From positions 1 through 64,000 of IMG/VR virus record IMGVR_UViG_3300032030_000024: a stretch of DNA of 64,000 nucleotides; one strand, written 5' to 3'. Positions 2,544 to 45,006 of the stretch are shown here, piece by piece. The notes under the pieces are model-generated. The model saw nothing but the letters and a program-made list of their open reading frames with translations. It did not search any database and was not told the origin of the DNA. Within the stretch, counting starts at the first letter, position 1. Each line of letters begins with the position of its first letter. Position numbers and translations under genes: made by a program. The stretch is from a virus (taxonomy: Duplodnaviria > Caudoviricetes).

Positions 2544-2647
2544 AGGCACAATCACCCCACCGCCAGCAAGAAAACGCGACGGTGGGGCTTGAAACCGCCT
2601 CAGACACAAACGAAAAAAGTCAAACCATCAAACAATAAAAAACGATT

Positions 2648-3187
2648 ATGTGCGTGATAATAATACGTCCGGCAGGTAAAAGCCTGCCACCGAAGAGTGA
2701 ATTGAGAAAAGCCTATAACATGAACCACGATGGCTGCGGATTCGTCAGCAAGTCCACGTCCTATCACAGCATGGACTTCGAGGACTTCTACGAGCACCTG
2801 AAGGCCGTCCCGAAGAGCGAGCCTGTCATCATACACTTTCGGTGGGCTACCCACGGGTCTGTGAGCATCAAGAACACCCACCCGTTCTACGACAAGGCCA
2901 CGGACACCTACTTCGCCCACAACGGTGTACTCCCGATTACACCGCACGGCGACAGGACGGACAGCGAGGAGGCATTCCGCAAGTACCTCGTGCCGGCCAT
3001 CAAGAAGGACGGCTATGACGGCGACATGCTCAGATACACCGTCAACCAGATTATCGGTGGCAGTAAGTTCGCCTTCATGCACGAGGGCAAGATAAAGCTC
3101 TTCGGACACTTTGAAGAATACGGCGGTTGCCTCTACTCAAACCTGCGTCACCTGCCTTACAGCAGGGCGTGGTTTATGGCAAGCTGA
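2648..3187 (+). CDS. class II (Ntn) glutamine amidotransferase-like protein
   Basis: N-terminal MC, NHDGCG, HFRWATHG, NTHPF, FAHNG and TDSE motifs; the usual amidoligase partner. Confidence 0.85.
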   Translation: MCVIIIRPAGKSLPPKSELRKAYNMNHDGCGFVSKSTSYHSMDFEDFYEHLKAVPKSEPVIIHFRWATHGSVSIKNTHPFYDKATDTYFAHNGVLPITPHGDRTDSEEAFRKYLVPAIKKDGYDGDMLRYTVNQIIGGSKFAFMHEGKIKLFGHFEEYGGCLYSNLRHLPYSRAWFMAS

Positions 3188-4287: not shown

Positions 4288-4446
4288 CCTGTAAAGGGTC
4301 TGAATATTCAAGGTACATACAGCTACTTTATCATTTCAGATTCTCCTGTAAAGGGTCTGAATATTCAAGGTACATACAGCGCTGGAGCAGTTGCCTGAGA
4401 AACTGGTGCGCCTGTAAATGGTATGAATATTCAAGGTACATACAGC
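4288..4446 (+). CRISPR. CRISPR array A (3 x 36-bp repeats)
   Basis: CCTGTAAAGGGTCTGAATATTCAAGGTACATACAGC at 4288 and 4345, variant at 4411; spacers 21 and 30 bp. Confidence 0.8.
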
Positions 4447-4485
4447 GGCAGCCGTTATACAAAAAAATACAAAAACGGTAACAAT

Positions 4486-5637
4486 ATGGTAATAACAAGA
4501 AAAATTGAGGTCTTCGTTTGTGAGGACGACAAAGACCTTCGTAGGGCATACTACGATAAGCTCTATGCCAACAGAGACATAGCCGTGAAAGTGGCAAACA
4601 TGGCAATGAGCCACCTCTTTGCCCTTGACAACACCATGCCATACCTTTCGGCTGAAGACAAGGAGCTGATAGAGTTCCTTGGCGTGAGGGGCAACAAGGC
4701 CACGAAGCAGAACGCACCATACGTTGCCGCGAGCGAAGCATTCAAGGGTAAGGCCGACATGGGCACAATTTCCTGTGTGCTACAGAACGCGCAGAAGATG
4801 TACGCGGATGACCGCAAGCGCGGCATGTGGGACAGGTCGTTGCGCTCCTACAAGCAGAACATGCCAGTGCCGTTCAAGGCCGGCAGATTCCTGAACCTCC
4901 GCTTTGCTGAGTACACCAACGGCGAGGGTGAGAAGCGCGAAGGCTGCTTCTTCACACTGATGGGCGTACCCTTCCAGATGCGCTTCGGGCGTGACCGCAG
5001 CGGCAACAGGCTCATCGTAGAACGCGTGATTAGCGGAGAGTACAAGATGTGCACATCATCGCTCAAGTTCGACGGCAAGAAGGTCTTCCTGCTGCTCTGC
5101 ATGGATATTCCCAAGAAGGAGGTGAAGCTCGACGAGAAAAAGACTATGTATGCCTACCTTGGCGTGATGAATCCTATTATCTGCACCTGTGACGTGAGGG
5201 CAGCAAAGGAGTATGACAGCGGGTATAAGTGGTGGGAGATTGGCACGAAGGAGGAGTTCAACTACCGCCGCCGCCAGATTCAGGAGGCCGTGCACCGCTG
5301 CCAGATAAACAACCGCTATTCCGAGGGCGGCAAGGGGCGCAAGCGCAAGTGTCAGGCTATTAAGCGCTGGCACGAGAAGGAGAAAAACTACGTTGACACC
5401 AAGCTCCACACCTATAGCCGTATGCTCGTCGACCTTGCCGTGAATCACGGATGCGGCAAGATAGTGCTGCTCAACCAGACGACACGTGAGGACAAGGCAA
5501 AAGAGGACAACCAGAACGGTGAGCCCTTTGTGCTGCGTAACTGGAGCTACTACGGATTGAAGGACAAGATTTCCTACAAGTGCAAGATGGTGGGCATAAA
5601 GATGATAGTTGACAAGGATAAAGAGAATGAAGAATAA
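4486..5637 (+). CDS. cas12f: Cas12f-like protein, predicted nuclease-dead (383 aa)
   Basis: C-half resembles AsCas12f1 (GGKGRKRK..HTYSRMLVDLAVNHGCGKI..LRNWSYYGLKDKISYK); RuvC-I GIDLG reads YAYLG, RuvC-II MEDL reads LLNQ; the protein ends before the Zn finger/RuvC-III; the ORF-track start at 4423 lies inside repeat A3. Confidence 0.85.
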   Translation: MVITRKIEVFVCEDDKDLRRAYYDKLYANRDIAVKVANMAMSHLFALDNTMPYLSAEDKELIEFLGVRGNKATKQNAPYVAASEAFKGKADMGTISCVLQNAQKMYADDRKRGMWDRSLRSYKQNMPVPFKAGRFLNLRFAEYTNGEGEKREGCFFTLMGVPFQMRFGRDRSGNRLIVERVISGEYKMCTSSLKFDGKKVFLLLCMDIPKKEVKLDEKKTMYAYLGVMNPIICTCDVRAAKEYDSGYKWWEIGTKEEFNYRRRQIQEAVHRCQINNRYSEGGKGRKRKCQAIKRWHEKEKNYVDTKLHTYSRMLVDLAVNHGCGKIVLLNQTTREDKAKEDNQNGEPFVLRNWSYYGLKDKISYKCKMVGIKMIVDKDKENEE

Positions 5638-10029: not shown

Positions 10030-10746
10030 TTATTCAAACATTTTCAGAAGTTCCTCACCCTTTGCAAACTTCGCGTCGGGTGCGATGCCCATCATGTCGC
10101 AGAAGGCTACGAAGTTGTCGTAGCTGGAAAACGACAGCGTTATGTGCGCCGCATCGTTCAGGGCATCGCGCTGCGCTATTTCCCGCGTCTTTGCCTTCCC
10201 CTCCTTCACCTTTGCCTTGTTCGCCTCGTACTCCTCAGAGCCTTTCTCTGGCACGGCCTTGGTGGGTTTCAGCATTTCACCGAAAAGGTCTGGCGTTTCC
10301 TCGCTGCCTCCCGTGGCGATATTCAGGATGTCGTCTATCTCGCTCTGGTCAAGACCTATCTCGCCAAGGTCTATCTCGTCGGCGAAGTTGGCAAGGAGGT
10401 CAAGGTTGTACGAAGTGTCGCCTGCCGCCATGTACGCCAGCTGCTGTTTCTCTTCCTGCTCGTTCATGTGTACCACCTCCACCTTCACCTCGTAGTCCGT
10501 CTCTGGAGTGCCGTCGTAGCCGTAGTACAAATCCATTGCAGATATTCTGCGATGGCCGTCAATAAGGTTTCCCGAAGTCTCGTTCCACACTATGCCACCG
10601 AGATAGCCAACCTTTTTCAGGTTTTTCTCTTGTGTTTTTATCCTGTCCTCACGGTGAATTTTTGGGTTGAGAGGGTTTTTCCGAATATCAGAACGCTTTA
10701 TTATTCGCGTCTCTGACGTTGTCAGCTGCTTCACCTTCTTTGCCAT
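10030..10746 (-). CDS. ParB/Srx-like protein
   Basis: NP..IVWNETSGNLIDGHRR. Confidence 0.8.
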   Translation of the reverse strand: MAKKVKQLTTSETRIIKRSDIRKNPLNPKIHREDRIKTQEKNLKKVGYLGGIVWNETSGNLIDGHRRISAMDLYYGYDGTPETDYEVKVEVVHMNEQEEKQQLAYMAAGDTSYNLDLLANFADEIDLGEIGLDQSEIDDILNIATGGSEETPDLFGEMLKPTKAVPEKGSEEYEANKAKVKEGKAKTREIAQRDALNDAAHITLSFSSYDNFVAFCDMMGIAPDAKFAKGEELLKMFE

Positions 10747-10837
10747 ATTCTCCTGCTTTAAAGTTCGTTACTCATATTATTTTGCTAAATCTCTTTAAAT
10801 TACGCGCCCATGACTTGCACGTCTCAAACAAATTGCT

Positions 10838-10960
10838 TATCTTTGTATCGTCATTGAAGCCGATATGACGCTAAACATCATCGGACAGGCACAGGGCTTC
10901 CGCTCATAGCGGCAAGTTGTGTAACCGAATCCAAACCTCGCTTCGGCGGGGTTTGATGCT
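10838..10960 (+). ncRNA. candidate pseudoknot sRNA, copy 1, convergent with nuclease gene
   Basis: TATCTTTG promoter, GTCAT/ATGAC stem, loop CCGAT pairs with ATCGG, second hairpin, TTCG-loop terminator. Confidence 0.6.
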
Positions 10961-10961
10961 T

Positions 10962-11522
10962 TTAATACGTCCGCACTTCACCAGACCTCTTGATGTAGTA
11001 ACCGTGATAGCCTTTCTCCGACAGCTCGTGAATCTTGTCACGGAACTTACGCCATTTCCCGTCCAACATGAACACCGTCATTTCGGCTCCCTGCTTCGTG
11101 GTGGCTTTCTCGGCGTGGGAGAGCATATACTTGGTACTCGTGCACCATTTCAGGTCGGCTGGCCTTCCGTCAATGGTGATGTCGTAGGTCTCGCCCTTCT
11201 TATCGTCCTGCCTCAGTACCACGTTGTGGCCGTCCTTCGCCAAGGCTCTCGACATGGTCTTCTCCTTGCGGTACACCTCCATGTTCTCCTTGCTCGCCAG
11301 CCCCTCGTTAGTCCTTTCCGCAAGTATGGTGAGAGACCCGCCGCCTTTGAAGGTTTCGTGGGTGTTTATGATGTCGCTTGCCTTCAGCTCCGGCAGTAGC
11401 CTGCTGCTTCGCTTTCCGCTGCGCTTGGCGGGAGAAGTTGGCAGCGGGCGCGGCAACGATTCTCTCACCGCGTTCAAGGCTCTCACGCCCCCTTCCCGTG
11501 CCACTGCTACCTCCTGTGCCAT
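10962..11522 (-). CDS. leader-bearing protein with CdiA-like (PD-D/ExK) nuclease domain
   Basis: leader MAQEVAVAREGGVRALNAV; C-terminal YDITIDGRPADLK..KQGAEMTVF. Confidence 0.7.
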   Translation of the reverse strand: MAQEVAVAREGGVRALNAVRESLPRPLPTSPAKRSGKRSSRLLPELKASDIINTHETFKGGGSLTILAERTNEGLASKENMEVYRKEKTMSRALAKDGHNVVLRQDDKKGETYDITIDGRPADLKWCTSTKYMLSHAEKATTKQGAEMTVFMLDGKWRKFRDKIHELSEKGYHGYYIKRSGEVRTY

Positions 11523-11528: not shown

Positions 11529-13784
11529 CTACTCAGCCCAAGCGTCCAACGTTTCCCTGTCGTAAATCTCCATTATACTTTTTTGAGACCCATCAGGCTC
11601 AATACGGAACACATCAGCATAGTTGTGCTTATGCTTTATGTAACGAGCCAATATTACAGAAACATAGTGAGGGGCAAGTTCAATCATACGGCATGTTCTA
11701 CCCAACTGTTCCGCAGCTATCAACGTAGTGCCAGAACCACCGAATCCATCAAACACAACATCACCCTTTTTTGAACTATTTTTCATCAGATAACCTACTA
11801 ACCCTACAGGTTTTTTCGTAGGGTGGTCCAAGGATTTTGTCGGTCTTTCCCAATCAATTACAGTTGACTGCTTGCGGTCAGAGTACCAGTTATGACCTGC
11901 ACCTTCCTTCCATCCGTAAAGGCAATTGTGGGTAATTATTCCGTCAGAAATATAGTGGTTGTGCTTTTCTACAGCAAGAGAATAAACCATACCTTCAAAC
12001 GGCTCAAATGTAACCGCATCAATTGATTTCCAATGAAAATTAGGAGCAGTTACACTATCACCAGTTGGAATAGGAATCTGCATTAACTCAGGAACAAGGT
12101 TACATGCATTTACTTTTGCCGTTACTCGTGTACTGAAACGCTCGTGAATGTTCTTTCTGTCAATAAGTGGGAATCTCTCTGAACGTCCAAAGTCGTGAAG
12201 TAGGCGATGAGCATTCTCCTGCATCGTTGCAAGGTCAAGGGAGCTGTAAATATTTGAAATTTGCTCTTCATTCCTTATCTTTGTATAGTCAGGATGTTTT
12301 AAACCACGCTGTACCTCCCAATGTGTATATGGAATCCCGTATTTTACTGCAAGTATCTGTTCACCTACCTGCGCATCCAAAGTGTTGTCGTATAAGTCAA
12401 GCAGCCACGCTTCATCAGCCTTTTCTTGATTAAATCGGCTTTTGAGTCCAAACTGACGAGCGTCATAGGCAACAGTATGACCTACACGCCACCAGTCGCC
12501 ACGTCTCATGATATAGGTGCAATAGCGTTTTCGGTTTTTTCCGTTAAATCTAATGCTGAACTCATGGTTATCAGTAGCGCGAGTTGTCTTTCCGTCAACG
12601 GTAACGGAATACATCAAACCGTTGTATTTCCGACTTGCAGTTTCTATGGCATAGCCACCATTACGATAGCCTTTTACTTGCCCACTGAAAGTATCAAATG
12701 TGATTACTCGGTCTTTGTTTGTCAACGCCTCAATGGGTTTAAGACCTTCCGTAGTTTGCACCATCGTACCTGCTGGTTGGCAAGGCTCATGTTTCCATTG
12801 GTAATCTTGCCTGCCCATAACGAACGAGTTTTTGTTCCATATCAGTGTCTGACGTAGTGTCATATCCCCTGCGTTCATAAGCGCAAGCCTAAAATAGTAG
12901 CTATTACTGTCAGAATGGAAAATATAATAAGTCCCACCTGGTTGCAATATTTGTTTTGCTTCTGTAAAAGCTTTTACAAGGAATTCAAGAAATCCTTCAC
13001 CAGAGAGATTGTCGTTTAGTACGAGTAAACCATCACCCTTTTCAGCACGCATACTGCCGTCAAAACCATAGTTTACCGCATAAGGAGGATCGGTCAGCCA
13101 TATGTGAGCCTGTTCTCCATTCGGAAAAAGACGTTGAACATCCTCCTGTTTTGTTGAGTCACCACAAAGCAGCAAATGCCTTCCGAGTTTCCACATCTGC
13201 CCCTCCTTGATAATCTCATCCGTCTCTATATCGTTCTGCTCGAAATCATCATCCTCCGTCACAGAACTCTCTTCCATTGGTGACACCCCTGGAGCAACGA
13301 GCGAGCCTTCCGCACCGCTGCCTTCTGCACCGCCTATAGAGCCACCGTTAGCCACATCATCCTCCAATGCCTGTCCGAGGTCGGGAAGGTCTATGGCGGC
13401 AAGTTCTATCTCGTCCATCGACCACTCGTTGAGCAGCAGCTCGAAGTCCGTCTCGCCGAAGCTGGAGTTGTCCTTCAGCACTATGCGGCGCAGCTTCTCG
13501 ATGGGGAATCCCGTATGCAGCACCTTGCAGGGCACTTCCTTGTAGCCGAGCTCCTTCATGGCACGGTAGCGCATATTGCCGCCAGCCACGACGTAGCCGA
13601 GGTCTGGGTTGCCCGTGTCATATACTATCAGCTCTCGCAGTTCGAGCATCTCAGGGTCATCCTTGATGCTCTGTACCAGTTTCTTGTACTTCTCGTCGCG
13701 TATGAAGCGCGGGTTCTTCGGCAGTCCCTTCACCTGTCCGATGTTGGGGAATACCTGTGTGATTGGCAGTTGTTCTGTGTTCAT
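11529..13784 (-). CDS. ParB-fused N6/N4 DNA methyltransferase, intein-containing
   Basis: ParB-like N-terminus (GGNMRY), TDPPY, HPTKKP, DGFGGSGTT. Confidence 0.9.
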   Translation of the reverse strand: MNTEQLPITQVFPNIGQVKGLPKNPRFIRDEKYKKLVQSIKDDPEMLELRELIVYDTGNPDLGYVVAGGNMRYRAMKELGYKEVPCKVLHTGFPIEKLRRIVLKDNSSFGETDFELLLNEWSMDEIELAAIDLPDLGQALEDDVANGGSIGGAEGSGAEGSLVAPGVSPMEESSVTEDDDFEQNDIETDEIIKEGQMWKLGRHLLLCGDSTKQEDVQRLFPNGEQAHIWLTDPPYAVNYGFDGSMRAEKGDGLLVLNDNLSGEGFLEFLVKAFTEAKQILQPGGTYYIFHSDSNSYYFRLALMNAGDMTLRQTLIWNKNSFVMGRQDYQWKHEPCQPAGTMVQTTEGLKPIEALTNKDRVITFDTFSGQVKGYRNGGYAIETASRKYNGLMYSVTVDGKTTRATDNHEFSIRFNGKNRKRYCTYIMRRGDWWRVGHTVAYDARQFGLKSRFNQEKADEAWLLDLYDNTLDAQVGEQILAVKYGIPYTHWEVQRGLKHPDYTKIRNEEQISNIYSSLDLATMQENAHRLLHDFGRSERFPLIDRKNIHERFSTRVTAKVNACNLVPELMQIPIPTGDSVTAPNFHWKSIDAVTFEPFEGMVYSLAVEKHNHYISDGIITHNCLYGWKEGAGHNWYSDRKQSTVIDWERPTKSLDHPTKKPVGLVGYLMKNSSKKGDVVFDGFGGSGTTLIAAEQLGRTCRMIELAPHYVSVILARYIKHKHNYADVFRIEPDGSQKSIMEIYDRETLDAWAE
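11925..12782 (-). mobile_element. intein in DNA methyltransferase (286 aa)
   Basis: starts CQPAGTMV, ends VYSLAVEKHNHYISDGIITHN followed by C. Confidence 0.9.
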
Positions 13785-25725: not shown

Positions 25726-27018
25726 TTAGTTGACTGGAGTTACCTTGCCCTGAAGCTCGTTCTGCTGTTCCTCGGAGAGCTTGTTCACAGCCTTGATGAT
25801 AGCTGCGTCAGTGGTGGTGGTCTTCAGGCGTGTGCTGCCTACCTCGTTCAGCGCGGTGACGAAAGCTGCCTTGTCGTACTTGTTCCCCCATACGGTCACA
25901 TATACATCAGTGGTGTCAGCCTCCTCAGCTGCGGGGTCAAGCTCCTGTCCCTGCGAAATATCGTAGATGTAAATCTGGTCGATATTCTCGATGATAGGAG
26001 CAACGATGGCCTGTCCCGTGGTGGTCTCGCGCAGCGGGTTCGTCTCGCGGAAGCGGGCGATGAGCTTGTAGTTGTCAATCGTTGCGTAGAGCACGTTCTC
26101 CACAGGGTTCGTCTGCTCTGCCAAGCGGCCATATACCAGCGTTCCGACAATCTCGCCCGTGACGAAGATGATACGGTTGTCGTCCCAAGGCTTCACGCTC
26201 TTGCGGACACCATTCTCCTCAACGATAACCGAGCGGTTCACCTTCACGAACGTCACACCGCCAGTCTCGTCGGAAAACGACTCGTCGAACTTGTTCGGTG
26301 TGGGAACGGGCAGGGTGAAGTCGTCAGATACGATACGGCGCTCATAGTTGGCAGACAGCTCGCGAGCCTCGCGGGTGTGGCGCAGCACATCGTATGTGGC
26401 CTTGGAAATCCAAATCTGATAGATATTGACACCGTTCTCCTGTGCCTTGGCAATAACGTCGAGGATGTCCTCAAGCGACGGCTCGCCCTTGGTCGAGGAA
26501 TAGAAGGTGTTCTTCTCCAGATAGCCGAAGTTGATGCGCATGAGAGCGTTGGGGTTGTCCTCGTCCTTGATGGCCACATAACCACGGGAGAGACCATAGA
26601 GGAAGTTGTATTCGTTACGCTCGTCGATAGCCTGTGCGCAGGCAACGGGGTCGTTGGCCAGCTTGCGGGCGATGAGCTGGGCGTTGCCGCCCTGTGCCTC
26701 CATAGTGTTGAGCGCGTTGATGTCCGACTCCTTCAGGACGCGGCTGATACCGATCTTTGGCAGCTTGCCGTTGGACGTCTGGATGGTGTCGCGCTTCTTG
26801 ATGGGAAGCGGGCTGTCCATAGACACGAAGTCGGCAGCAACGTAGGTGGTGTCGGAAACGGTGCTCTCCCACTTGTTGTCGGGCGAGTACTCCTCGTTCA
26901 GGTGTGACTTGTGCAGATAGGTGAGATTACGGTCACGCTTGCCGTTGACCGTCTCGATAAGACGCTGGAGCATCGGGAAGAAGCGCTCCAGGTACTTCTG
27001 AAATAATGACTGTAACAT
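25726..27018 (-). CDS. major capsid protein
   Basis: 430 aa, VAADFVSMDSPLP..GKLPKI; follows scaffold and decoration genes. Confidence 0.85.
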   Translation of the reverse strand: MLQSLFQKYLERFFPMLQRLIETVNGKRDRNLTYLHKSHLNEEYSPDNKWESTVSDTTYVAADFVSMDSPLPIKKRDTIQTSNGKLPKIGISRVLKESDINALNTMEAQGGNAQLIARKLANDPVACAQAIDERNEYNFLYGLSRGYVAIKDEDNPNALMRINFGYLEKNTFYSSTKGEPSLEDILDVIAKAQENGVNIYQIWISKATYDVLRHTREARELSANYERRIVSDDFTLPVPTPNKFDESFSDETGGVTFVKVNRSVIVEENGVRKSVKPWDDNRIIFVTGEIVGTLVYGRLAEQTNPVENVLYATIDNYKLIARFRETNPLRETTTGQAIVAPIIENIDQIYIYDISQGQELDPAAEEADTTDVYVTVWGNKYDKAAFVTALNEVGSTRLKTTTTDAAIIKAVNKLSEEQQNELQGKVTPVN

Positions 27019-27479: not shown

Positions 27480-28358
27480 TTAACTCATGATTGCGGCAAG
27501 CGCGTCAATCTCCGCCTCGGTCATGGGCTTCTGCTCGTCGCCCTGTCCCTGCTGCTCTCCTGCACCGGGCTTGCCTAACTTATCAAGTCCTTGGTTGGCA
27601 CGTTCCTGGTTCATGGCCTTGATGTCCTCCTGCACCCCGCTGACGAACTCGTTGAAGTCCTCGTCGGAGTCGAAAGTCATCTTGGCATAGTTCTTCTTGA
27701 TGCGCTCACCGTACACGCCCGAACCCTCAAGGATGGTGGCCAGCTGCTTCTCGCGGTTCTCCTTCACCTTCTCGGTCTTCATGGCGATGAACTCGTTACG
27801 GAAAGCCTCGAACTCCTCCTGCTGCTTCTTGGCGGCTTCCTGCTGCTTCTTCATGGCAGCGGTCTGCTCCTTCAGCTGCTGTGTGAGCTTCTCGTTCTCC
27901 TGCTTCAAGCCCTTTGCCCAATCCGATTCGAGAAGCTTCTGGAATCCTGCTTCCTCAGCAGCCTTGCGAGCTGCCTCCTCAGCGGCCTTGCGCTCTTCCT
28001 CGGCTTTCTTGGCAGCTTCCTCCTCCTCTGCCTTGCGTTTTGCCTCGGCCTCTTCCGCAGCTTTTCGTGCGGCTTCCTCCTCGGCCTTGCGCTTGGCTTC
28101 TGCCTCGGCCTCCTGGCGCTTCTCCTCCTGCTTCTGGATAATGCGGTTAGCGTGACTCTGCGCGAGCTCAAGGTGGAATATTGCCGCGTCCACTTCCTTC
28201 GTGGCCGCTGCCGTCATTGCCTCGTCCGTTGCATCGTCCTCTACATTGAGGTTGTCAGCAATCTTCGTTGCGACACCCTCCAGCTCCTCCTTCGTGAACC
28301 CGAGACTCTTGGCCTTCGGTTTCAGAAGTTCCAGTACCAACTTGGTTTTCTTGTTCAT
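27480..28358 (-). CDS. capsid scaffolding protein
   Basis: K/E/A-rich coiled coil at the head of the capsid operon. Confidence 0.7.
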   Translation of the reverse strand: MNKKTKLVLELLKPKAKSLGFTKEELEGVATKIADNLNVEDDATDEAMTAAATKEVDAAIFHLELAQSHANRIIQKQEEKRQEAEAEAKRKAEEEAARKAAEEAEAKRKAEEEEAAKKAEEERKAAEEAARKAAEEAGFQKLLESDWAKGLKQENEKLTQQLKEQTAAMKKQQEAAKKQQEEFEAFRNEFIAMKTEKVKENREKQLATILEGSGVYGERIKKNYAKMTFDSDEDFNEFVSGVQEDIKAMNQERANQGLDKLGKPGAGEQQGQGDEQKPMTEAEIDALAAIMS

Positions 28359-36699: not shown

Positions 36700-36867
36700 T
36701 CACCGCCTTTTCAGCGTCAGCCTAATAAGGTCGTTGCTGGAGAAGAAACCGTCCACGGCTCCTTCCTTGCAGTCTCTCTTTGCCCTTGCCAGCTGCTCCT
36801 CCGACAAGTCCTTTACGGACAGCCCGTAGGTCGCCAGCCGCTGCTTTAACTCGTTGTCCTTTGCCAT
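36700..36867 (-). CDS. small hypothetical protein (55 aa)
   Basis: MAKDNELKQRL..., below ORF-track cutoff; last gene of the cassette. Confidence 0.5.
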   Translation of the reverse strand: MAKDNELKQRLATYGLSVKDLSEEQLARAKRDCKEGAVDGFFSSNDLIRLTLKRR

Positions 36868-36870: not shown

Positions 36871-37101
36871 CTACCTCCTTTCCAGTTGTCCTATCTTCCT
36901 GTTCAGTACGTTCATCCGTGAGCTGTATTCTGCCTCGGATAACTCACCACGGGCATACATCTGCATCACCCCGGCCTTCTGCTGACGGTACAGGTCGAGA
37001 TAGTCACTCACCGTGTGGCCGCTTGCACGTGCCTTGTCGCTGCGCATGGCGTTCAACGGGCTAACGCTCGATTCCCTTGCCACAGTGCTTTCTTTTGCCA
37101 T
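36871..37101 (-). CDS. leader-family protein
   Basis: MAKESTVARESSVSPLNAM. Confidence 0.75.
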   Translation of the reverse strand: MAKESTVARESSVSPLNAMRSDKARASGHTVSDYLDLYRQQKAGVMQMYARGELSEAEYSSRMNVLNRKIGQLERR

Positions 37102-37102
37102 A

Positions 37103-37705
37103 TTAACCTCCTATTTTTTTGATTATTCGTTTTATTCTTTCCTTAAATGCCTTGTCATCGCGATTCACCCTTGCCTCGGCATAGTCTATCTTCTGACCTT
37201 TGTGGTCAACGCGATAGACGTGCTTTTCCATATCTCGGTTCACCTGCGAGCGGATGGACTCAAACTGCGTCGGGTTGTCCCGAAAACGCTCCGCCACCTT
37301 CTTTCCTTTCGGTGTGTTTCTAATGTCACCCCATTTTCTGTCAAGTGCCTCGGCTACGTTGCGAAGCTTGGTGCTTCCGTAGTAGTCGTTGATATCATCC
37401 TCACCACCCTTGTTGAACCACCCGTCAGGGTCAAGTCCGAAGAACGGATACCATTTACCGCTTTCCACGCTGTACTTCCTTCCTTGGCCAGTCGAGAGGT
37501 AGAATGGCATATCCACACCATTGATGTTGACGATGACTATCTTTCTGTCAGCGAGGTCTATCATGCCTTGATACACACCATCTATTTTCATCTTGTGAAA
37601 GTGTGTTCCCTCTGGCAGACCATCGGATTTTATCCTGGGTGCAGTGCCCATTGCATTCAATGGGCTGACACTTCCCTCTCGCACTGCTACTACTTCTGCA
37701 CTCAT
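37103..37705 (-). CDS. leader-family protein
   Basis: MSAEVVAVREGSVSPLNAM; globular C-terminus with PFYLSTG..KWYPFFG. Confidence 0.75.
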   Translation of the reverse strand: MSAEVVAVREGSVSPLNAMGTAPRIKSDGLPEGTHFHKMKIDGVYQGMIDLADRKIVIVNINGVDMPFYLSTGQGRKYSVESGKWYPFFGLDPDGWFNKGGEDDINDYYGSTKLRNVAEALDRKWGDIRNTPKGKKVAERFRDNPTQFESIRSQVNRDMEKHVYRVDHKGQKIDYAEARVNRDDKAFKERIKRIIKKIGG

Positions 37706-37708
37706 AGC

Positions 37709-38338
37709 TTACCCTTTCTTCTTAGTATATTTCCAACCAAGCTCATCAGCCACAAGTTTGTTTATCTTGTGAAAGAATGTCACTGCATAGCGGTTATAGG
37801 CCGTCTGCGAGCCTCGCATGAGGTCGTAGTACGTCTGTCCGTTCACCGTCACCTCGTCAGCCGCCTTTTTGTACGCCCTGCGGACAGCCGCCTGCGTCAC
37901 GCCCCACTTGTCACCGTTCCGCTTGATGGAGAAGGTATAGGTTGGAGTGACGGCACGTATCTCCTTCGCATTGAACTTCACTGCAAGCACGGCATCCTCC
38001 GCAGAGAAGGAGTTGCCGATGCGCATATAGCCGCGTTCCGAGAGCGCCGACGGGTGGTTGTGCGTCATGATGAGGTTCTCGCCCGGCACGTCACTGTCGC
38101 GGAGTGACACGCGGTCGCGCTTCCCCTGCTTGCGGTTGAGCTGGTTGCCTGCATCGTCGTAGAAGGCCATCGCCTCGTTCTCCTCCTGCCGCTGGCGGTT
38201 CTCGTAGGAGAGGATGGCACGTTTCAGCGAAGCGGAATAGCCGTTCTCCGTCACCCCGCCTACCGTCCTCACGTCACCGCGCACGGCGTTGCCAGCGTTT
38301 GCCGTGGAGTGCTCCCTTGCCGATGTTACCTCTTTCAT
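37709..38338 (-). CDS. leader-family protein with JAB/MPN-like domain
   Basis: MKEVTSAREHSTANAGNAV; E..THNHPS..FSAED. Confidence 0.75.
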   Translation of the reverse strand: MKEVTSAREHSTANAGNAVRGDVRTVGGVTENGYSASLKRAILSYENRQRQEENEAMAFYDDAGNQLNRKQGKRDRVSLRDSDVPGENLIMTHNHPSALSERGYMRIGNSFSAEDAVLAVKFNAKEIRAVTPTYTFSIKRNGDKWGVTQAAVRRAYKKAADEVTVNGQTYYDLMRGSQTAYNRYAVTFFHKINKLVADELGWKYTKKKG

Positions 38339-38344
38339 ACCTTA

Positions 38345-38692
38345 TTACCTGCTTACTATTTCATCCCACGCGAGCTTTCGCCACTTGCGGACATTAGCCC
38401 TTGCCGAATCGGAAATACGATAACTCGTGCTGAAATGCTCTGCCACGGCATAGAAATTGCCAAGCTGCCTGTCGGTCATTGCTTCACGCTCCAGATACTT
38501 GAAAGCATCCGCATTATCGGCATTCCTCTTTTCAAGATGCCGCGTTATGGCGTTGTACTCCTTGTCGGGAATCTTGTTCACGTCACGTGGGACACGTATC
38601 TTGCCGATATACCGCGTCCGTGAATTGCTCGGCCTTACCGCGTTTAACGGCTTTGCCGAACTTTCTCTTGCTGTTGTCACCTCCTGTGCCAT
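38345..38692 (-). CDS. leader-family protein
   Basis: MAQEVTTARESSAKPLNAV. Confidence 0.75.
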   Translation of the reverse strand: MAQEVTTARESSAKPLNAVRPSNSRTRYIGKIRVPRDVNKIPDKEYNAITRHLEKRNADNADAFKYLEREAMTDRQLGNFYAVAEHFSTSYRISDSARANVRKWRKLAWDEIVSR

Positions 38693-38703
38693 ACTACCAA
38701 CAT

Positions 38704-38973
38704 TTAAGCTGTCATGTTTATGTATTTCATATTAGCCTCCATTTCCCTGATGCGAAAGTTCAGGTACTCGATGCTTTTCTCAGCTGCATAACGCTCACGG
38801 TTGTCTGAGGCGTATGTGTAGCGGTCTTCCGCTTCTTGCAGCTGCCCACGGTACTTGTCACGCAGCTGCGCATACTCACGGTACGCTCTCTGCCTGCGGG
38901 CTTTGTCACCGTCCGATACTGCGTTGAGCGTCTTCGCCCTTGCTTCCCTTGCAATATATGCCTCTGCTGCCAT
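38704..38973 (-). CDS. leader-family protein
   Basis: MAAEAYIAREARAKTLNAV. Confidence 0.75.
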   Translation of the reverse strand: MAAEAYIAREARAKTLNAVSDGDKARRQRAYREYAQLRDKYRGQLQEAEDRYTYASDNRERYAAEKSIEYLNFRIREMEANMKYINMTA

Positions 38974-38979
38974 AGCCCT

Positions 38980-39408
38980 TTACTTTTTGGTCTTTTTTCG
39001 GATTATCAGCCGATGCTCGTTCTTCCACGGGTCTGTCGAGCGCAGCTCTAAGATTCCATCGGTGCGGTCAGCTGCTTTCCAGTTGGTCTCTCCCAAGCCA
39101 GAACGGTTAAGAGCCTCTGCCACCTTTTTTGCACCACCGCCAACGGAATTTCCTACGACATAGTCAAACGCTCGTCTCTGGTCTTCCGTTCCAATATTCT
39201 TCAAGAACGGATATTTTTCACGCCTCAGTTTCTCGGTTAGGGCAAACGTGTGATTAGTGACGGCCATAGGAGTGCCATCTTTCCCCACTACCGTTGCCCT
39301 GTAGTTGCTTCTGAAATCACTTATGACTCTATCGGCTCTCCCAGGAGACCCTGTTGCGTTGAGCGGCCTTGCCTTGCTCTCACGCGCTATCGATACCTCT
39401 GCTGCCAT
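38980..39408 (-). CDS. leader-family protein
   Basis: MAAEVSIARESKARPLNAT. Confidence 0.75.
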   Translation of the reverse strand: MAAEVSIARESKARPLNATGSPGRADRVISDFRSNYRATVVGKDGTPMAVTNHTFALTEKLRREKYPFLKNIGTEDQRRAFDYVVGNSVGGGAKKVAEALNRSGLGETNWKAADRTDGILELRSTDPWKNEHRLIIRKKTKK

Positions 39409-39412
39409 AACA

Positions 39413-39724
39413 CTATACTATTATGCCGTTACTACGCCATATCTTCTTCTGAAGATCATCTATTTCCGCTTGTACCCTTGCTCTTTGCGGAGGAGGGTAG
39501 CTTGATACGCTTCTTCTCAGTGCGTCAAGACGCTGCTGCATCTGCCGCTGGGAAGAAGTCTGCGGCATGGTCAGCGCATCGAAATAGTCCTGCCTGCCAC
39601 CGTTCTTGTTCTGTGACGGGTAGGTTGCACGCCCAAGGCTTCTGTCTGTGCGCCTGCTGACGGCATTTGCTGCCCGCAGTCCCATCACTTTTGTTTACCT
39701 TGCAATTGTTGCTTCTTTAGCCAT
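39413..39724 (-). pseudogene. leader-family gene with nonsense codon in the leader
   Basis: MAKEATIAR*TKVMGLRAANAV; TAA at 39695-39697 where paralogs have Glu. Confidence 0.7.
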
Positions 39725-39729
39725 AGTAC

Positions 39730-39993
39730 TTAGTTTTTAATAACCAGTTTATAACCGTGCGGAAGGTCATAGTTCCCGTCCGCATTGTTCCACTTAGTAG
39801 GCTCATCGCGGTATGCTGAGTAGTCCCACAGACCGCTCTCCACGACCTTGCCCTTCTCGTTGTAGACCTTGACGTAGGAATCATCGTAGAATCCCCTGTC
39901 ACTCTTCGGCACTTTTGATGATCGCCGTGCCGTTCCCGTTGCGTTAAGGGGTCTGGCACCACCCTCTCTTGCTACTGTTGTCTCTTTTGCCAT
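39730..39993 (-). CDS. leader-family protein
   Basis: MAKETTVAREGGARPLNAT. Confidence 0.75.
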   Translation of the reverse strand: MAKETTVAREGGARPLNATGTARRSSKVPKSDRGFYDDSYVKVYNEKGKVVESGLWDYSAYRDEPTKWNNADGNYDLPHGYKLVIKN

Positions 39994-40017
39994 AGAAAAT
40001 ATTTTTAAAGTTCTTTA

Positions 40018-40512
40018 CTACGCATCCGCAAAAACACGTCCGTCACTGAGCGTTACCTGTAATTTTGTGTACTCGGAATGGAAGTCGTTCTTCAGACGCT
40101 CCAGATACCGCCTGCACTCCAACTTGCACATGTATAGGTTATGGAGAAGGAAATTGCCGCACGTCTCTGGAGTCGTAGCGGGGACTTCCTTCTGCGTGAG
40201 TATCCACTCCATACACTCGATAGTAAGCCGCCTCATATCCTCAACGATGTAGCTGCCCGTCATTATGACGTACATTCCCGTGAGGCATCCCATCGGTCCC
40301 ACATACACCACATCGTCCTTGACCTCGCTGTTGCGGAACCACGTTGCCATCAGATGCTCCATGCTGTGCATCGCTGCTGGCGCAACAGCAGGCTCCATGT
40401 TCGGCTCGGTGATGCGCAGGTCAAAGGTGGTGAAGCCTCTGTCCTGCCGCGACACGTAGATGCCAGGCTTCAGATGCGTGTGGTCGATGGTGAAACTCTG
40501 TATAACTTCCAT
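40018..40512 (-). CDS. luxS: S-ribosylhomocysteine lyase
   Basis: SFTIDH, FDLR..PN, HSMEH, GPMGCLTG, CGN. Confidence 0.93.
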   Translation of the reverse strand: MEVIQSFTIDHTHLKPGIYVSRQDRGFTTFDLRITEPNMEPAVAPAAMHSMEHLMATWFRNSEVKDDVVYVGPMGCLTGMYVIMTGSYIVEDMRRLTIECMEWILTQKEVPATTPETCGNFLLHNLYMCKLECRRYLERLKNDFHSEYTKLQVTLSDGRVFADA

Positions 40513-40527
40513 AATTGTATTTTTTAC

Positions 40528-40761
40528 TTAACGGTTACCAAGCATCCTGTCTACTGCCCTGCGGATGCGAGTGTTGTTACGCTGCTGGTTGGCGGGAACG
40601 TATGGCATATTGCCAGAAATATTGCCGTAATGCCTCTGGAGGTTGTAGGCACGGAGCCTTACCGCCTGCTCTGCGGTACTTAGACCGTTGCGGCGTGCCT
40701 CCTCGCGGTTCATGAATGCCCGTGTGCGGCTGCTCATCGCTACTGTTGCTTCTCTTGCCAT
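40528..40761 (-). CDS. Arg-rich protein with partial leader
   Basis: MAREATVA... Confidence 0.6.
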   Translation of the reverse strand: MAREATVAMSSRTRAFMNREEARRNGLSTAEQAVRLRAYNLQRHYGNISGNMPYVPANQQRNNTRIRRAVDRMLGNR

Positions 40762-40851
40762 AATCTTCAACTTTTATTGTTCAACGTTTTATATTATGCT
40801 AAATCTTACTAAATTTATTGCGTTTTACTTGCATTGTTCAGATATTACGCT

Positions 40852-40966
40852 TATCTTTGCAGTGTCATTGATGCCGATATGACTTTAATACAATCGGACA
40901 AGGCTGTGTTACGCTTCGGGCGGCTCGGACTACCCTCGCCTCGGACTTCGGTTCGGGGCGTTGATA
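40852..40966 (+). ncRNA. candidate pseudoknot sRNA, copy 2, convergent with nuclease gene
   Basis: TATCTTTG, GTCATTGATGCCGATATGAC..ATCGGACA, TTCG-loop terminator. Confidence 0.6.
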
Positions 40967-40968
40967 TT

Positions 40969-41460
40969 TTAGAAAGTCTTCAACTTTAATTCGTCCGTCA
41001 AGAAGTAGTAGCCGTGAATACCTCTTTTTGTAAGCTTTTCCACCTCTGTTTTCATTCTCTCATTCCATTTATCAAACTGAAACACTACTAAGTCTGCGCC
41101 TTGCCTGCCTATGGCATCATCCGCATGACGTTTTATGTTGTTATGGCTACCAAGCCTTTTTAAGTCTGCAAGGACACCATTTATCCTTATATCCGGCGAT
41201 GGTATGCCGGGAATCTCATTCAGATGCTCAACGGTAAAACCTTGTGAAGCGAGGAATTTAGCCATCTGCTGCTCCTTCCTGTACTTATAGTATTCGGTCT
41301 TATTTGTCTGCCCGAAATTATACCTACGTTCATCAGTAAGGAGTTGACCGCCATTTTCGTAATAGACAACAGGTGTATATACGTTTGAGCGATTGGCTAC
41401 ACCCATGACGTTCTGTGGCACCCAATCTTCTTCCTTGTATATATACGTTTCTCTTGCCAT
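40969..41460 (-). CDS. divergent leader-family protein with CdiA-like nuclease domain
   Basis: MARETYIYKEE..PQNV; SPDIRINGVLADLK..RQGADLVVF; paralog of 10962-11522. Confidence 0.7.
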   Translation of the reverse strand: MARETYIYKEEDWVPQNVMGVANRSNVYTPVVYYENGGQLLTDERRYNFGQTNKTEYYKYRKEQQMAKFLASQGFTVEHLNEIPGIPSPDIRINGVLADLKRLGSHNNIKRHADDAIGRQGADLVVFQFDKWNERMKTEVEKLTKRGIHGYYFLTDELKLKTF

Positions 41461-41463
41461 ACG

Positions 41464-42672
41464 TTACTCTTTCTTCTCCTGCTTCTCCTTCTGAGCGTAG
41501 TCGTGGCATACTCTCCGAAGAGATTGTTGGATACAATCGTGACTGCCGCTTTGGATAACCTCTGAGGTCTTACCATCACTCTCCAATTCGTAGATGCCCC
41601 TACGAAGTATGTTGTTAGCCGCCAGCAGGTCGCGGTCGTGAATCGTTCCGCATTCATGGCATACCCATTGCCTGTCCGACAACTTCAACTCTTTGTTTAT
41701 ATATCCGCACTCGCAGGTCTTGGAAGATGGGTAGAAGCGGTCTATCTTGTGAACCACAACACCGTACTTCGTGGCAATGTACTCCAACTTCTGAACGAAA
41801 TCCGCATGGGCGAGGTCGTGCATCTTCCTTCCCCAACGTCTGTTCATCCCTTCAAGGTTCAAGTCCTCGATGAAGATGGTGTCGTACTTTCGGCATAGTT
41901 CGTGGGCGAGTTTCCATTGGAAATCGCTGCGCCTATTGCAGATGTCGTTCATAAGATGGTCTAAATCCTTACGCTTGCGCTCACGGTTGCTGCTGCCCTT
42001 CTTACACTTGCTGAGATTGCGGCTTCTCCTGCGTAACTCGACAAGGCTTCCTTTCAAGAACTGAGGATTGTCGTAGGCCGTGCCGTCCGACAAGGTTAGG
42101 TACTTCTTCAAACCGAAGTCAATGCCAACGGATGCACCTTTGAGTGTCTTTCCGTACTTGCTCGGCTCTGCATCTGTGACAATAAATATATAATATTCTC
42201 CGATACGGCTTCTGTATAAAACTACTCTCTTAATTCTTCCTTCATATTGTCTACTTTTGTAATATTTGAATGACTTTCCTAATTGTACAAACGATATACT
42301 ATTTTCTTTTAAATCACACACATTTACACTCCATTTTCCATGATTACAAACGCCTTTAAAAACAATACTTGAGAAGTCCTTTGCTTTCTTAAATTTTGGA
42401 GGACGACTTGCAATATGGTTAAAAAATCTTTTGCAAGATTCATCAAGACGCTCAAGGATTTCTTGTACAGCCATAGCACTAAGCAGTTTCCTTTTTATTC
42501 TTTTTGCTTGATGCTTCTGCATATCATAGAGCGATATATATTTTCCAAATAACCTATAATATCTTTTATATAATGCCAAAGCATGATTCCATACAAAGCA
42601 AGCCTCGTTCATCATCGCATCAAGATACTTGGTGCGATGTGTCCGATAGAGTTTATACTTGTACGTCATCAT
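41464..42672 (-). CDS. tnpB: IS200/IS605 TnpB RNA-guided nuclease (catalytic residues intact)
   Basis: YKYKLY HTH, GIDFGLK, IFIEDL, PSSKTC, CxxCG.IHDRDLLAANN. Confidence 0.93.
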   Translation of the reverse strand: MMTYKYKLYRTHRTKYLDAMMNEACFVWNHALALYKRYYRLFGKYISLYDMQKHQAKRIKRKLLSAMAVQEILERLDESCKRFFNHIASRPPKFKKAKDFSSIVFKGVCNHGKWSVNVCDLKENSISFVQLGKSFKYYKSRQYEGRIKRVVLYRSRIGEYYIFIVTDAEPSKYGKTLKGASVGIDFGLKKYLTLSDGTAYDNPQFLKGSLVELRRRSRNLSKCKKGSSNRERKRKDLDHLMNDICNRRSDFQWKLAHELCRKYDTIFIEDLNLEGMNRRWGRKMHDLAHADFVQKLEYIATKYGVVVHKIDRFYPSSKTCECGYINKELKLSDRQWVCHECGTIHDRDLLAANNILRRGIYELESDGKTSEVIQSGSHDCIQQSLRRVCHDYAQKEKQEKKE

Positions 42673-42761
42673 ACTGCAAAGATAATATTTATGTGTTTAG
42701 TAAACAAATACTTTAGACATCTTTAGCTTCTTTTTCTGATTCGTTTTTTTTCTTCCAATCG
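41504..42761 (-). mobile_element. tnpB-only element inserted in the 3' end of the PAPS-reductase-like gene
   Basis: right-end hairpin TCTC-TTCG-GAGA then TATGCCA; removal restores an in-frame FEYDYAQKEKQEKKE*; boundaries inferred. Confidence 0.55.
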
Positions 42762-43429
42762 TATTCAAACAACAACCTCTCACAATCCGGGTACTCCGAG
42801 TATATGCGCTGCAAGTCCTTCGGGAACTTCTCACGGATGTACAGCAGGTAGTCGAGGTCGCTGATGTTCTGCCCGTTGCTCTGGCCTTTTGCGCCGTATT
42901 TCTCTGGCGGTATCAGGCCGTTCCTGTCAATGTACTCCAAGATGTCCTTGTTCTTGTAGTGCGAGAGAGGATAGCACTTCTTCGATTTCTCGCAGATGGC
43001 CTCCATCGTGTACGTCCGCAGCATACAGCGGCGGTTTAGACTGTCGCTCTGCTTGAAGCCGTAGAAAGCCCACTCGATTCCGAACTTCTGCCGCAGCATG
43101 TCTGTGAGGCTCGCCATCGTCTGTAGCTTCATCTTCGGATTCTTCTCATGCCCCATGTAGCCGTACTTCACGTATGAGAAAACGGCGAAGTGGGGAATCT
43201 GGTAGAACTCGCAGTTCGCGTACTTCTTGCGGGCGTAGTTGATGTAGCGGCTGATGTGCTCCATGTCCTTCACGATGTACATGAACACACAGACCACCCG
43301 CTTGAACCTCGGTGCGAGTATGTCGAGCAGTGCTATGGAGTCCTTGCCCGACGCGGAATGGAAGAGTATCACCTCCTCCACGCCGCGCTTGGCTATCTCA
43401 TCACAGATTAGAAGTGCCTTGTCTAACAT
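42713..43429 (-). CDS. PAPS reductase family (PP-loop) protein
   Basis: SASGKDS, GFKQSDSLNRR, YPLSHY. Confidence 0.85.
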   Translation of the reverse strand: MLDKALLICDEIAKRGVEEVILFHSASGKDSIALLDILAPRFKRVVCVFMYIVKDMEHISRYINYARKKYANCEFYQIPHFAVFSYVKYGYMGHEKNPKMKLQTMASLTDMLRQKFGIEWAFYGFKQSDSLNRRCMLRTYTMEAICEKSKKCYPLSHYKNKDILEYIDRNGLIPPEKYGAKGQSNGQNISDLDYLLYIREKFPKDLQRIYSEYPDCERLLFEYDWKKKNESEKEAKDV

Positions 43430-43441
43430 GAGTTTTAACTT

Positions 43442-43540
43442 CTATAACTTTGAATGTCCTTCATAGTGAAACCATTCCGTTTCAGCCTCTTGATGGCCTT
43501 TGAGCCTTCGCCTCTTGAAGATTGTTGCTTCGCTTGCCAT
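43442..43540 (-). pseudogene. truncated leader-family remnant
   Basis: MASEATI followed by a short frame, 32 aa in total. Confidence 0.4.
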
Positions 43541-43561
43541 AATTTTATCCTTTCTTTGTTT

Positions 43562-44053
43562 TTATAAACTTCTTGTTTGTTTTCTTGGTTTTCTTAACAT
43601 TTGCGAGGAGAAATCCTTTATATCTTGTGTATAACCACGACCTTCGCCTGTTCTTATTCTAATGGTCTTGTCTGCCATATCACCGTTAACGCTAAACCTA
43701 TATCCTTCTACCACGCCTTTCCTGTAGCCTTTCTGGTTTTTGCTTACCTTAAAATCAACCTCGTCACCGACTTTGAACTTCTTAGCAGCAACTTTAAATG
43801 CTAAAGCCTCTTTTATCTCCTTTTTGATTTCCTTACGGTGGTAATCGGCATTACTTTTTATCTTTTCCGTTCCGCCCTTGAGTATGGCCTTGCCTGCAAA
43901 ATCCTCGTCTGGAGCCTTTAATGCAGCTTTGCTGTCATTAATAAACTTAGATACATCTTGCAGTACCTTATTATTGTTGCTTCTATTGGCATTGCCAACC
44001 GCATTTATAGGATTTATATTTCCCTCACGTGCTGAAAATACCTCACTTGCCAT
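43562..44053 (-). CDS. leader-family protein with SH3/KOW-like C-terminus
   Basis: start placed at MASEVFSAREGNINPINAV; FKVGDEV. Confidence 0.75.
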   Translation of the reverse strand: MASEVFSAREGNINPINAVGNANRSNNNKVLQDVSKFINDSKAALKAPDEDFAGKAILKGGTEKIKSNADYHRKEIKKEIKEALAFKVAAKKFKVGDEVDFKVSKNQKGYRKGVVEGYRFSVNGDMADKTIRIRTGEGRGYTQDIKDFSSQMLRKPRKQTRSL

Positions 44054-44078
44054 AATTCTAAAACTTTTAAATTGTATT

Positions 44079-44486
44079 TTACTTTCTCTTGGCCGCTGCC
44101 GCAAGCCTCTTGAGCCTGCGCACACCCTGATTCAGCTCACGGTTGTAGGCCGCACGTTCAGCCTTTGCCTGTGCAAGGAGGGCGCGGTCTGTCGTGAACG
44201 AAGAGTTGGCATAATTGCCAAGCGGGTACTTCTCACGGAGTTCACTCCGCAAGTTCTGTACCTGCGTCTCATACTCATCATCAATCCTCCTGTCACGCTC
44301 GTCACGCCGCAGGCTTTCATAGATGCGCATGTTCACACCCTGCTCCTCCAGCTCCCGTCTGTAAGAGTCACTGACTGGACGTGTGGTGATACTGCGGAAC
44401 GGGTTAGCCCTCCGCTGTGTGCCACTGCTGACGGCATTTAGCGGGTTTGCACTACTCTCCCGCGCCACGTATGATTCTTGTGCCAT
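44079..44486 (-). CDS. leader-family protein
   Basis: MAQESYVARESSANPLNAV. Confidence 0.75.
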   Translation of the reverse strand: MAQESYVARESSANPLNAVSSGTQRRANPFRSITTRPVSDSYRRELEEQGVNMRIYESLRRDERDRRIDDEYETQVQNLRSELREKYPLGNYANSSFTTDRALLAQAKAERAAYNRELNQGVRRLKRLAAAAKRK

Positions 44487-44784: not shown

Positions 44785-44933
44785 AATCCTTAGAAAATTA
44801 CCGATTCAAAAACTCATATATTCTCTTTGTCGTTTGTGCGGAAGGCGAAGGATTCTAACCTCCCGTATAATAAACCTACTTCGTTTCGCAACGGTTCGGT
44901 GTCGTGATATTATGAAAATAATAAAGACTGTTG

Positions 44934-45006
44934 TGGAGCTTGACGGAATCGAACCGACGACCTTCTGCTTGCAAAACAGACGCTCTCCCAACTGAGCTAA
45001 AACCCC
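44934..45006 (-). tRNA. tRNA-Ala(UGC)
   Basis: GGGGTTTTAGCTCAGTTGGGAGAGCG-TCTGT-TTTGCAA-GCAGA-AGGTC-GTCGGTTCGATTCCGTC-AAGCTCCA; G3:U70 pair; CCA not encoded. Confidence 0.92.

Follow-up and report, generated by a model that had tools for sequence, protein, structure and literature searches.

Why should neighbouring phage genes, whose products are otherwise unrelated, all begin with the same short peptide? This question is raised by positions 36871-44486 of a 64,000-nucleotide stretch of DNA (hereafter, the window) from a tailed virus of the class Caudoviricetes. The window comprises the first 64 kb of IMG/VR record IMGVR_UViG_3300032030_000024, which is 123,590 bp long, classed as linear and about 85% complete. 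Here, a cassette of small genes shares an 18-residue N-terminal leader, which is modular, under selection at the protein level, and carried by about 87 unrelated body families of common composition within one phage lineage. We give an even chance to the reading that this leader is a virion-loading tag, analogous to the capsid targeting sequence (CTS) of phage T4.

A leader conserved at the protein level

The leader follows the consensus M-A-x-E-(V/T/I)-x-x-A-R-E-x-x-(V/A)-x-P-(L/I/V)-N-A. Across sets of 61 and 114 sequences, M1, E4 and E10 are invariant, and A2, A8, R9 and N17 are conserved to at least about 90%. Conservation reaches residue 18 and then ends abruptly. The original prediction had reported about a dozen such genes and one outlier, and this count held up: the full leader MAxExxxARExxxxP(L/I/V)NA is present on 11 genes of the window, ten within 36871-44486 and one starting at 11522, and three further genes carry degenerate copies. 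The leader always sits at the first ATG, and every copy lies on the minus strand, with the ATG as the upper coordinate of each gene below.

44079-44486, minus strand: leader gene, 135 aa (MAQESYVARESSANPLNAV), with a body family common to five relatives
43562-44053, minus strand: leader gene, 163 aa from ATG 44053 (MASEVFSAREGNINPINAV), with a putative SH3-like body
43442-43540, minus strand: degenerate copy, a 32-aa remnant with only MASEATI of the leader left
40969-41460, minus strand: CdiA-CT-like PD-(D/E)xK nuclease, 163 aa, with a degenerate leader (MARETYIYKEEDWVPQNVM)
40528-40761, minus strand: basic protein, 77 aa, with a degenerate leader (MAREATVAMSS...) and orthologues in relatives L009 and L040
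39730-39993, minus strand: leader gene, 87 aa
39413-39724, minus strand: leader gene interrupted by TAA at codon 10, where the others encode Glu10
38980-39408, minus strand: leader gene, 142 aa
38704-38973, minus strand: leader gene, 89 aa, basic and helical
38345-38692, minus strand: leader gene, 115 aa
37709-38338, minus strand: leader gene, 209 aa, with a JAB/RadC-like motif
37103-37705, minus strand: leader gene, 200 aa, residues 48-130 of which form a domain also present inside polyvalent-type proteins
36871-37101, minus strand: leader gene, 76 aa, with a probably SHOCT-like C-terminus
10962-11522, minus strand: outlier with the full leader, 186 aa, paralogous to the CdiA-CT-like nuclease

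A hidden Markov model (HMM) of the leader, run against the six-frame translation of the whole 123.6-kb genome, gave 11 matches of 32-50 bits, all at these open reading frame starts. The next best match elsewhere in the genome reached only 9 bits, and none was internal to the giant proteins. The HMM was partly built from window sequences, and the informative part of this result is therefore the lack of matches elsewhere. At the DNA level, a leader pattern matched eight times on the reverse strand, never on the forward strand, and never when read backwards as a control. Genes within the cassette are separated by gaps of 1-41 nt, except for one of 207 nt after the nuclease gene.

One copy departs from the rest. 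The gene starting at 39724 reads MAKEATIAR-TAA-TKVMGLRAANAV, with a stop codon in place of the otherwise invariant Glu10 codon, while its intact orthologues read MAGEVMKAREARVMGLRSRNAIGGRTDRAHGRAT; MAGEVMKAREARVMGLRSRNAI... This gene is either a recent pseudogene or an untagged variant. A GTG at 39688, just past the leader at 39695-39724, is a possible site of translation restart.

The original prediction had warned that conservation at the nucleotide level would instead signal a recombination or regulatory site. Compared across nine paralogues from the window, codon positions 1, 2 and 3 have identities of 0.63, 0.71 and 0.37. All six Arg codons are used at Arg9, and GAA and GAG are about evenly used at Glu4 and Glu10 (63 leaders). 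Exact runs shared by pairs of paralogues have a median length of 8 nt and reach 15 nt at most, and the DNA upstream of the leader genes is A-rich and otherwise unconserved. A recombination site or RNA element is therefore unlikely, since the leader is conserved at the protein and not the nucleotide level. These data also bear on the idea that the shared 5′ end is a relic of duplication, kept as a recombination handle or as a context for translation initiation while the peptide itself is functionless. Such a relic would fit the tandem, paralogue-like cassettes with their mosaic shuffling, as well as the use of GCA as codon 2 in 56 of 60 leader genes behind A-rich DNA, as expected for translation initiation in Bacteroidota. 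It does not fit the low agreement at third positions, the variety of Arg9 codons, the shortness of exact runs, the abrupt end of conservation after residue 18, or the persistence of the motif across 114 clusters that are more than 50% different. Codon analysis thus largely refutes this idea, to which we attach little probability.

The tagged proteins as a class

To find further leader loci in IMG/VR and in metagenomes, degenerate DNA patterns were used, which yielded two further IMG/VR contigs of about 120 kb and 14 metagenome loci, mostly with several leader genes each. A profile of the first 32 residues, built from 61 sequences (A1), was searched against 1.84 billion cluster representatives (E≤0.001) and matched 114 protein clusters at 50% identity, with a best E of 4e-10. 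All of these proteins are 61-253 aa long, and the leader is N-terminal in all but two, whose starts are probably mis-called. The motif search proposed with the original prediction thus revealed a lineage-wide tag on at least 114 protein clusters.

The bodies behind the leader are diverse. When compared by BLAST (1e-3), 168 non-redundant leader proteins fell into 87 body families, which bears out the earlier claim that the C-termini are unrelated. Leader-extension modules and bodies have been reshuffled between genes, and the extension MGLRSRNAIGGRTDRAHGRAT, for example, is joined to different bodies. Nearly all bodies lacked a match in Pfam and PHROGs. Most leader proteins display one recognisable domain or none, and with at most 253 aa each they are not giant multi-domain polypeptides. 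Nevertheless, they form a class by composition. Compared with other small proteins of the same phage, leader proteins have a median isoelectric point (pI) of 9.7 against 6.35, with 83% above pI 9, an Arg content of 10.8% against 6.5%, and a Cys content of 0.09% against 2.4%; 93-95% of them are Cys-free, against 12% of the comparison set. In the AlphaFold2 (AF2) models of the 209-aa and 200-aa proteins, the leader has a predicted local distance difference test score (pLDDT) of 27-37 over residues 1-26 or 1-35 and is not packed on the body. Familiar kinds of leader were considered and rejected. A leader of ribosomally synthesized and post-translationally modified peptides does not suit bodies that are domains of 50-230 aa rather than short cores, and a Sec, Tat or lipoprotein signal does not suit a peptide in which the hydrophobic core, twin-arginine motif and lipobox are all missing.

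Some bodies provided clues to what these proteins may do, and the body annotations of the original prediction were borne out only in part. It had named two CdiA-like nucleases. The nuclease-like proteins encoded at 40969-41460 and 10962-11522 are paralogues that keep a PD...(D/E)LK motif, and their joint profile matches the Burkholderia CdiA-CT structure 4g6v_A (E 4.2e-4, 23 bits). Against Pfam CdiA_C the pair scores 24.2 and 15.1 bits, under the 26.6-bit cut-off, and the assignment is tentative. The 209-aa protein, for which a JAB-like domain had been proposed, has a member in every cassette examined and carries E55, H93-N-H95-P and S110..D115, an E...HNHP...S..D motif that is invariant in six orthologues. 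Beyond this motif, the matches are weak: 11-12 bits to the RadC Pfam family, an hhalign probability of 40%, and Atlas feature scores of 0.80-0.86. Its AF2 model has a pLDDT of 55.6 and a best structural match of Z 4.0; the family had no sequence match in the PDB and no structural match above that value. For the putative SH3-like product of 43562-44053, only a weak CusF match was found.

The 200-aa protein contains a domain of about 85-115 residues with 49-66% identity to internal parts of proteins of 1415-1942 aa. Its residues 48-130 match inside P0300-P0303 (E 1e-26 to 1e-32). These large proteins, in which RNase_T or LPD38 is also present, are polyvalent proteins as defined by Iyer et al. 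2017 (PMC5512222). A Foldseek search of the PDB with the AF2 model of the 200-aa protein (pLDDT 70.7) returned no match at E≤0.001. Among the remaining members, L040 encodes a YodL-domain protein with the leader, and SHOCT is matched by three cassette members, including probably the C-terminus of the 76-aa protein at 36871-37101.

All genomic contexts examined belong to a single Bacteroidota phage lineage. The usual gene order, found in L009, L030 and L040, starts with a PAPS reductase and a first group of leader genes. A DGHRR-motif (ParB-like) gene comes next, followed by as many as about 16 further leader genes, a DNA methylase, the small terminase subunit (TerS, DUF5681) and the large subunit (TerL). 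In L036, a 162-kb relative, the cassette instead adjoins the portal gene, with the scaffold and capsid genes a few kb downstream. In relatives, the cassette lies on the same strand as the methylase-TerS-TerL genes directly downstream, or as the portal and scaffold neighbours, with intergenic gaps of 1-41 nt. In the window, rearrangement has left a single member, that starting at 11522, at the methylase/ParB/TerS site, while the others lie upstream of tail-fibre and head genes. Searching 185,579 species genomes with the leader pattern yielded three single matches and no prophage host. Two, in Rhodobacteraceae and Gemmataceae metagenome-assembled genomes (MAGs), are at chance level, and the third lies on a contig of 2.6 kb that had been binned with a Bacteroidaceae MAG from roe-deer reticulum.

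Neighbouring genes, head genes and host

LuxS, a TnpB element and a PAPS-reductase gene break up the cassette of the window, which is also accompanied by conserved genes that lack the leader. These, together with the relevant head, packaging and tail genes, are as follows (G000 denotes the genome of the window).

42713-43429, minus strand: PAPS-reductase-family gene, leaderless, adjoining the cassette in relatives as well
41464-42672, minus strand: TnpB (OrfB_IS605 plus Cas12f1-like TNB), inserted between the PAPS-reductase and nuclease genes, with its own TAnnTTTG promoter at 42684
40771-40968, plus strand: conserved element in convergent orientation to the nuclease gene; TAnnTTTG promoter at 40852, also on the plus strand
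40018-40512, minus strand: LuxS, leaderless, embedded in the cassette
36700-36867, minus strand: 55-aa helical protein, leaderless, accompanying the cassette in L009 and L036; candidate accessory factor
10030-10746, minus strand: protein of 238 aa, without a Pfam match, that carries a ParB/Srx-like DGHRR motif; interleaved with the cassette in relatives
11529-13784, minus strand: N6/N4 DNA methylase with an intein
6704-9091, minus strand: large terminase with an intein
25726-27018, minus strand: major capsid protein of the lambda-gpE type, by family matches (Phage_cap_E, phrog_29)
27480-28358, minus strand: scaffolding protein, 292 aa, with an N-domain, an ER/K helix and a C-domain; candidate leader receptor
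G000 84892-92667 and 79380-84407, minus strand, outside the window: tape measure protein of 2591 aa, then a 1675-aa protein

The outlying leader gene at 11522 has the intein-bearing methylase on one side and the DGHRR-motif gene on the other, a site that the cassette occupies in relatives. Methylase genes of relatives contain one or two inteins, and that of L040 contains none. Near-copies of the convergent element lie at 10747-10961 and 40771-40968, both on the plus strand and one beyond each CdiA-CT-like nuclease gene, with 78% mean column identity. Each has a plus-strand TAnnTTTG motif (at 10838 and 40852), followed by GTCATTGA.GCCGATATGAC and ATCGGACA blocks, and may encode an antisense or antitoxin RNA directed at the nuclease. 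LuxS recurs in L036 (7254-9849), where MetK, a PNP_UDP_1 nucleosidase and LuxS stand together just upstream of the scaffold gene, and MetK is also encoded at G000 94372-95589. By their predicted activities, these enzymes would form a phage-borne set for recycling S-adenosylmethionine and S-adenosylhomocysteine. A tRNA-Ala (TGC) gene is found just upstream of the cassette (44933-45006, minus strand), and a second transposase-like gene at 4423-5637 (plus strand). Near the terminase, Amidoligase_2 (PF12224) and a class-II glutamine amidotransferase (GATase) are adjacent to each other (1497-3187, plus strand), and the GATase recurs beside TerL in L030.

In the scaffolding protein, an E/R/K/A-rich linker with the look of a single alpha-helix joins the conserved N- and C-terminal domains, and its length differs across 45 homologues. 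The major capsid protein of L036 (11261-12817, 518 aa) has a weak BACON-domain match, which suggests that this capsid displays a carbohydrate-binding module. The window also encodes a pectate-lyase tailspike, and an SPP1-type portal is encoded outside it. The tape measure and the 1675-aa protein imply a very long tail.

The closest cultured relatives of the capsid are phages of Cellulophaga, Porphyromonas and Riemerella, close capsid homologues bear Bacteroides and Parabacteroides in their database names, and gene starts display an A-rich region without a Shine-Dalgarno sequence, along with TAnnTTTG promoter motifs. Taken together, these features point to a Bacteroidota host. A megablast of the head region against cultured phages gave no match. 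The leader-bearing phages appear to be a group of about 120 kb from rumen and gut Bacteroidota.

Possible functions of the leader and its known counterparts

Based on these findings, we postulate that the leader is a portable address tag. Late in infection, the tag would dock a changing set of small, basic, Cys-free proteins onto a conserved part of the assembling virion, most likely the scaffold, or alternatively the portal or the inner capsid surface. The tagged proteins would then be packaged alongside the DNA and ejected with it on infection of the next cell; there, this cargo, including nucleases and other host- or defence-directed domains, may act as early effectors. New cargo could be recruited simply by gaining a leader. 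We infer virion targeting, the receptor, ejection and any cleavage of the leader (e.g., after Glu10 or Ala18) from several lines of evidence: a modular tag on unrelated bodies, the composition of the class, a leader not packed on the body, the overlap with toxin and polyvalent domains, the site beside packaging or head genes, and the precedent of the T4 and P1 signals. The basic, Arg-rich and Cys-free composition fits proteins that sit with DNA and pass through a narrow channel, and domains of the polyvalent type have been argued to be injected with DNA (Iyer et al. 2017, PMC5512222). The MuF domain (PF04233) had no match in the leader proteins or in G000, G001 and G002, the three genomes of the lineage used in gene-family searches, and the usual carrier of phage toxin domains was therefore undetected there.

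Several observations weigh against virion loading. No S77, S78, S49 or ClpP prohead protease was found in G000 (Pfam, E≤1), and S78 and ClpP were also absent from G001 and G002, in records judged 75-85% complete and by searches that divergent proteases may escape. A T4-style cycle of loading and cleavage is therefore unsupported. The capsid protein also lacks a propeptide-like extension, contrary to a strict cycle of that kind; given both observations, the tag may stay on or be removed by something unrecognised. L034, a 94-kb relative with 59% capsid identity, has homologues of the scaffold, capsid and portal genes, and the 21 kb of it that were examined contain no leader genes, so the tag is not general to this capsid type; a RadC gene is present in that region. 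No consensus promoter links the cassette to the structural operons. Comparison by eye with the T4 CTS (PMC9026906) reveals only Glu10 in common and no sequence homology, and packaging is proven in T4 and predicted here. When the scaffold (alignment A4) was co-folded with the leader (alignment A1), without controls, the score was 0.00 against a mark of 0.32, which is evidence neither way.

Apart from the duplication relic discussed above, three other explanations deserve consideration. The leader might be a docking or regulatory motif that acts inside the infected cell by binding a hub of host or phage, which would govern the stability, timing or location of takeover proteins without packaging. 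Such a hub could be a chaperone, a protease adaptor (with the leader as degron), the machinery of replication or transcription, or one of the conserved 55-aa and ParB-like proteins. A short, flexible N-terminal peptide with invariant charged residues does resemble a linear motif, the Pfam searches gave no prohead protease, the leader receptor is still at the candidate stage, and leaderless genes are conserved beside the cassette. Toxin-like nucleases may also need control in the cell that produces them, and a conserved convergent element lies beside both. What intracellular docking leaves unexplained is the almost complete lack of Cys and the high pI of the bodies, their overlap with polyvalent-protein and toxin domains, and the steady position of the cassette beside packaging or head genes. 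We consider this explanation unlikely, while still giving it appreciable weight.

Far less probable is an export signal that directs proteins out of the infected cell or into its envelope. It would agree with the N-terminal position and with the lack of Cys, as in many exported proteins, and it conflicts with the absence of the signal features sought above and with bodies that are basic, nucleic-acid-type proteins and nucleases. Moreover, type IX secretion in Bacteroidota relies on C-terminal domains. Equally hard to credit is the proposal that the leader, by virtue of Glu4, Glu10 and Asn17, is covalently attached or modified, possibly by Amidoligase_2 and the class-II GATase, which would tether cargo to a virion component. 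The invariance of acidic and amide residues and the location of both enzyme genes near TerL in the window and in L030 speak for it. The sole link, however, is co-presence in the same genomes, where these enzymes could equally serve nucleotide or DNA modification, and there is no known target lysine or acceptor.

A bolder version of the loading tag, which we advance tentatively, is a signal that is unrelated in sequence to the T4 CTS and needs no classical prohead protease, being removed, if at all, perhaps by the leader-tagged JAB-like protein. In this lineage an 18-residue tag would replace covalent fusion to MuF or polyvalent proteins, and any small Cys-free protein could become injected cargo. 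If the leader does load virions, these genes would supply candidate injected effectors of more than 100 families, nearly all of them lacking a known domain, from phages of a dominant gut and rumen phylum whose early infection is little known. The T-even logic of a leader with swappable cargo would then have arisen independently in a different head type, without a detectable maturation protease. In addition, fusion of 18 residues would be a simple handle with which protein delivery by Bacteroidota phages could be tested in laboratory strains, and the tag could then serve to bring chosen proteins into rumen and gut Bacteroidales. If docking takes place inside the infected cell instead, the leader would mark a large, coherent set of host-directed proteins with a conserved binding partner worth finding.

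Systems with a comparable logic have been described in other phages. In phiKZ-like giant phages and SPN3US, paralogous head proteins share N-termini with an A-x-E cleavage motif; gp53 and gp54 of SPN3US begin MANFVKSKLARESVE (PMC5694885), a start similar to the ARES core seen here. The likeness of A-R-E to the A-x-E sites is only a resemblance. Those propeptides are mostly longer than 100 residues and are cleaved by an identified prohead protease, neither of which holds here. In phage P1, an N-terminal stretch of about 30 residues sends DarB, or a reporter joined to it, into the capsid for action in the next host (PMC9024508). Both systems also have a ParB/Srx-type protein alongside their cargo genes, namely DdrB in P1 and the DGHRR-motif protein here (PMC5512222). 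The P1 signal, which has no sequence similarity to the leader, is found on one 250-kDa protein, whereas the leader is found on more than 100 small ones. Polyvalent proteins and MuF toxins (PMC5512222) overlap in domains with the leader proteins (the domain of the 200-aa body, YodL, the RadC/JAB-like motif and the toxin-type nuclease), and early action after entry with the DNA is predicted for both. Those systems fuse their domains into a giant polypeptide or onto MuF, whereas here separate small genes stand behind a common leader.

The closest parallel is the T4 CTS, a peptide of 10 residues on the hypervariable set of internal proteins of T-even phages (PMC3012670, PMC9026906). Its first 10 residues suffice; among these, residues 4 and 7 are important for targeting, whereas cleavage is influenced by residues 8 and 10 (Glu) (PMC9026906). 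As in T4, a short N-terminal peptide precedes unrelated, mostly small and basic proteins encoded in a fast-changing gene block. The two also agree in positions, as residues 4, 8, 9 and 10 are invariant or nearly so here and position 10 is Glu in both. In contrast, the conserved unit here spans 18 residues rather than 10, and T4 has a gp21-type (S77) protease, whereas none of the known prohead proteases was detected here. The setting differs as well, with a lambda-gpE-type head and a separate scaffold, a Bacteroidota host and a tape measure protein of 2591 aa. The original prediction of an undescribed capsid-loading tag for injected effectors is partly supported and can be refined: the class properties fit it and the leader sequence is indeed undescribed, while the principle is known from the CTS and the T-even locus. 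The leader system would therefore be one that works like the T4 CTS without being a member of that family.

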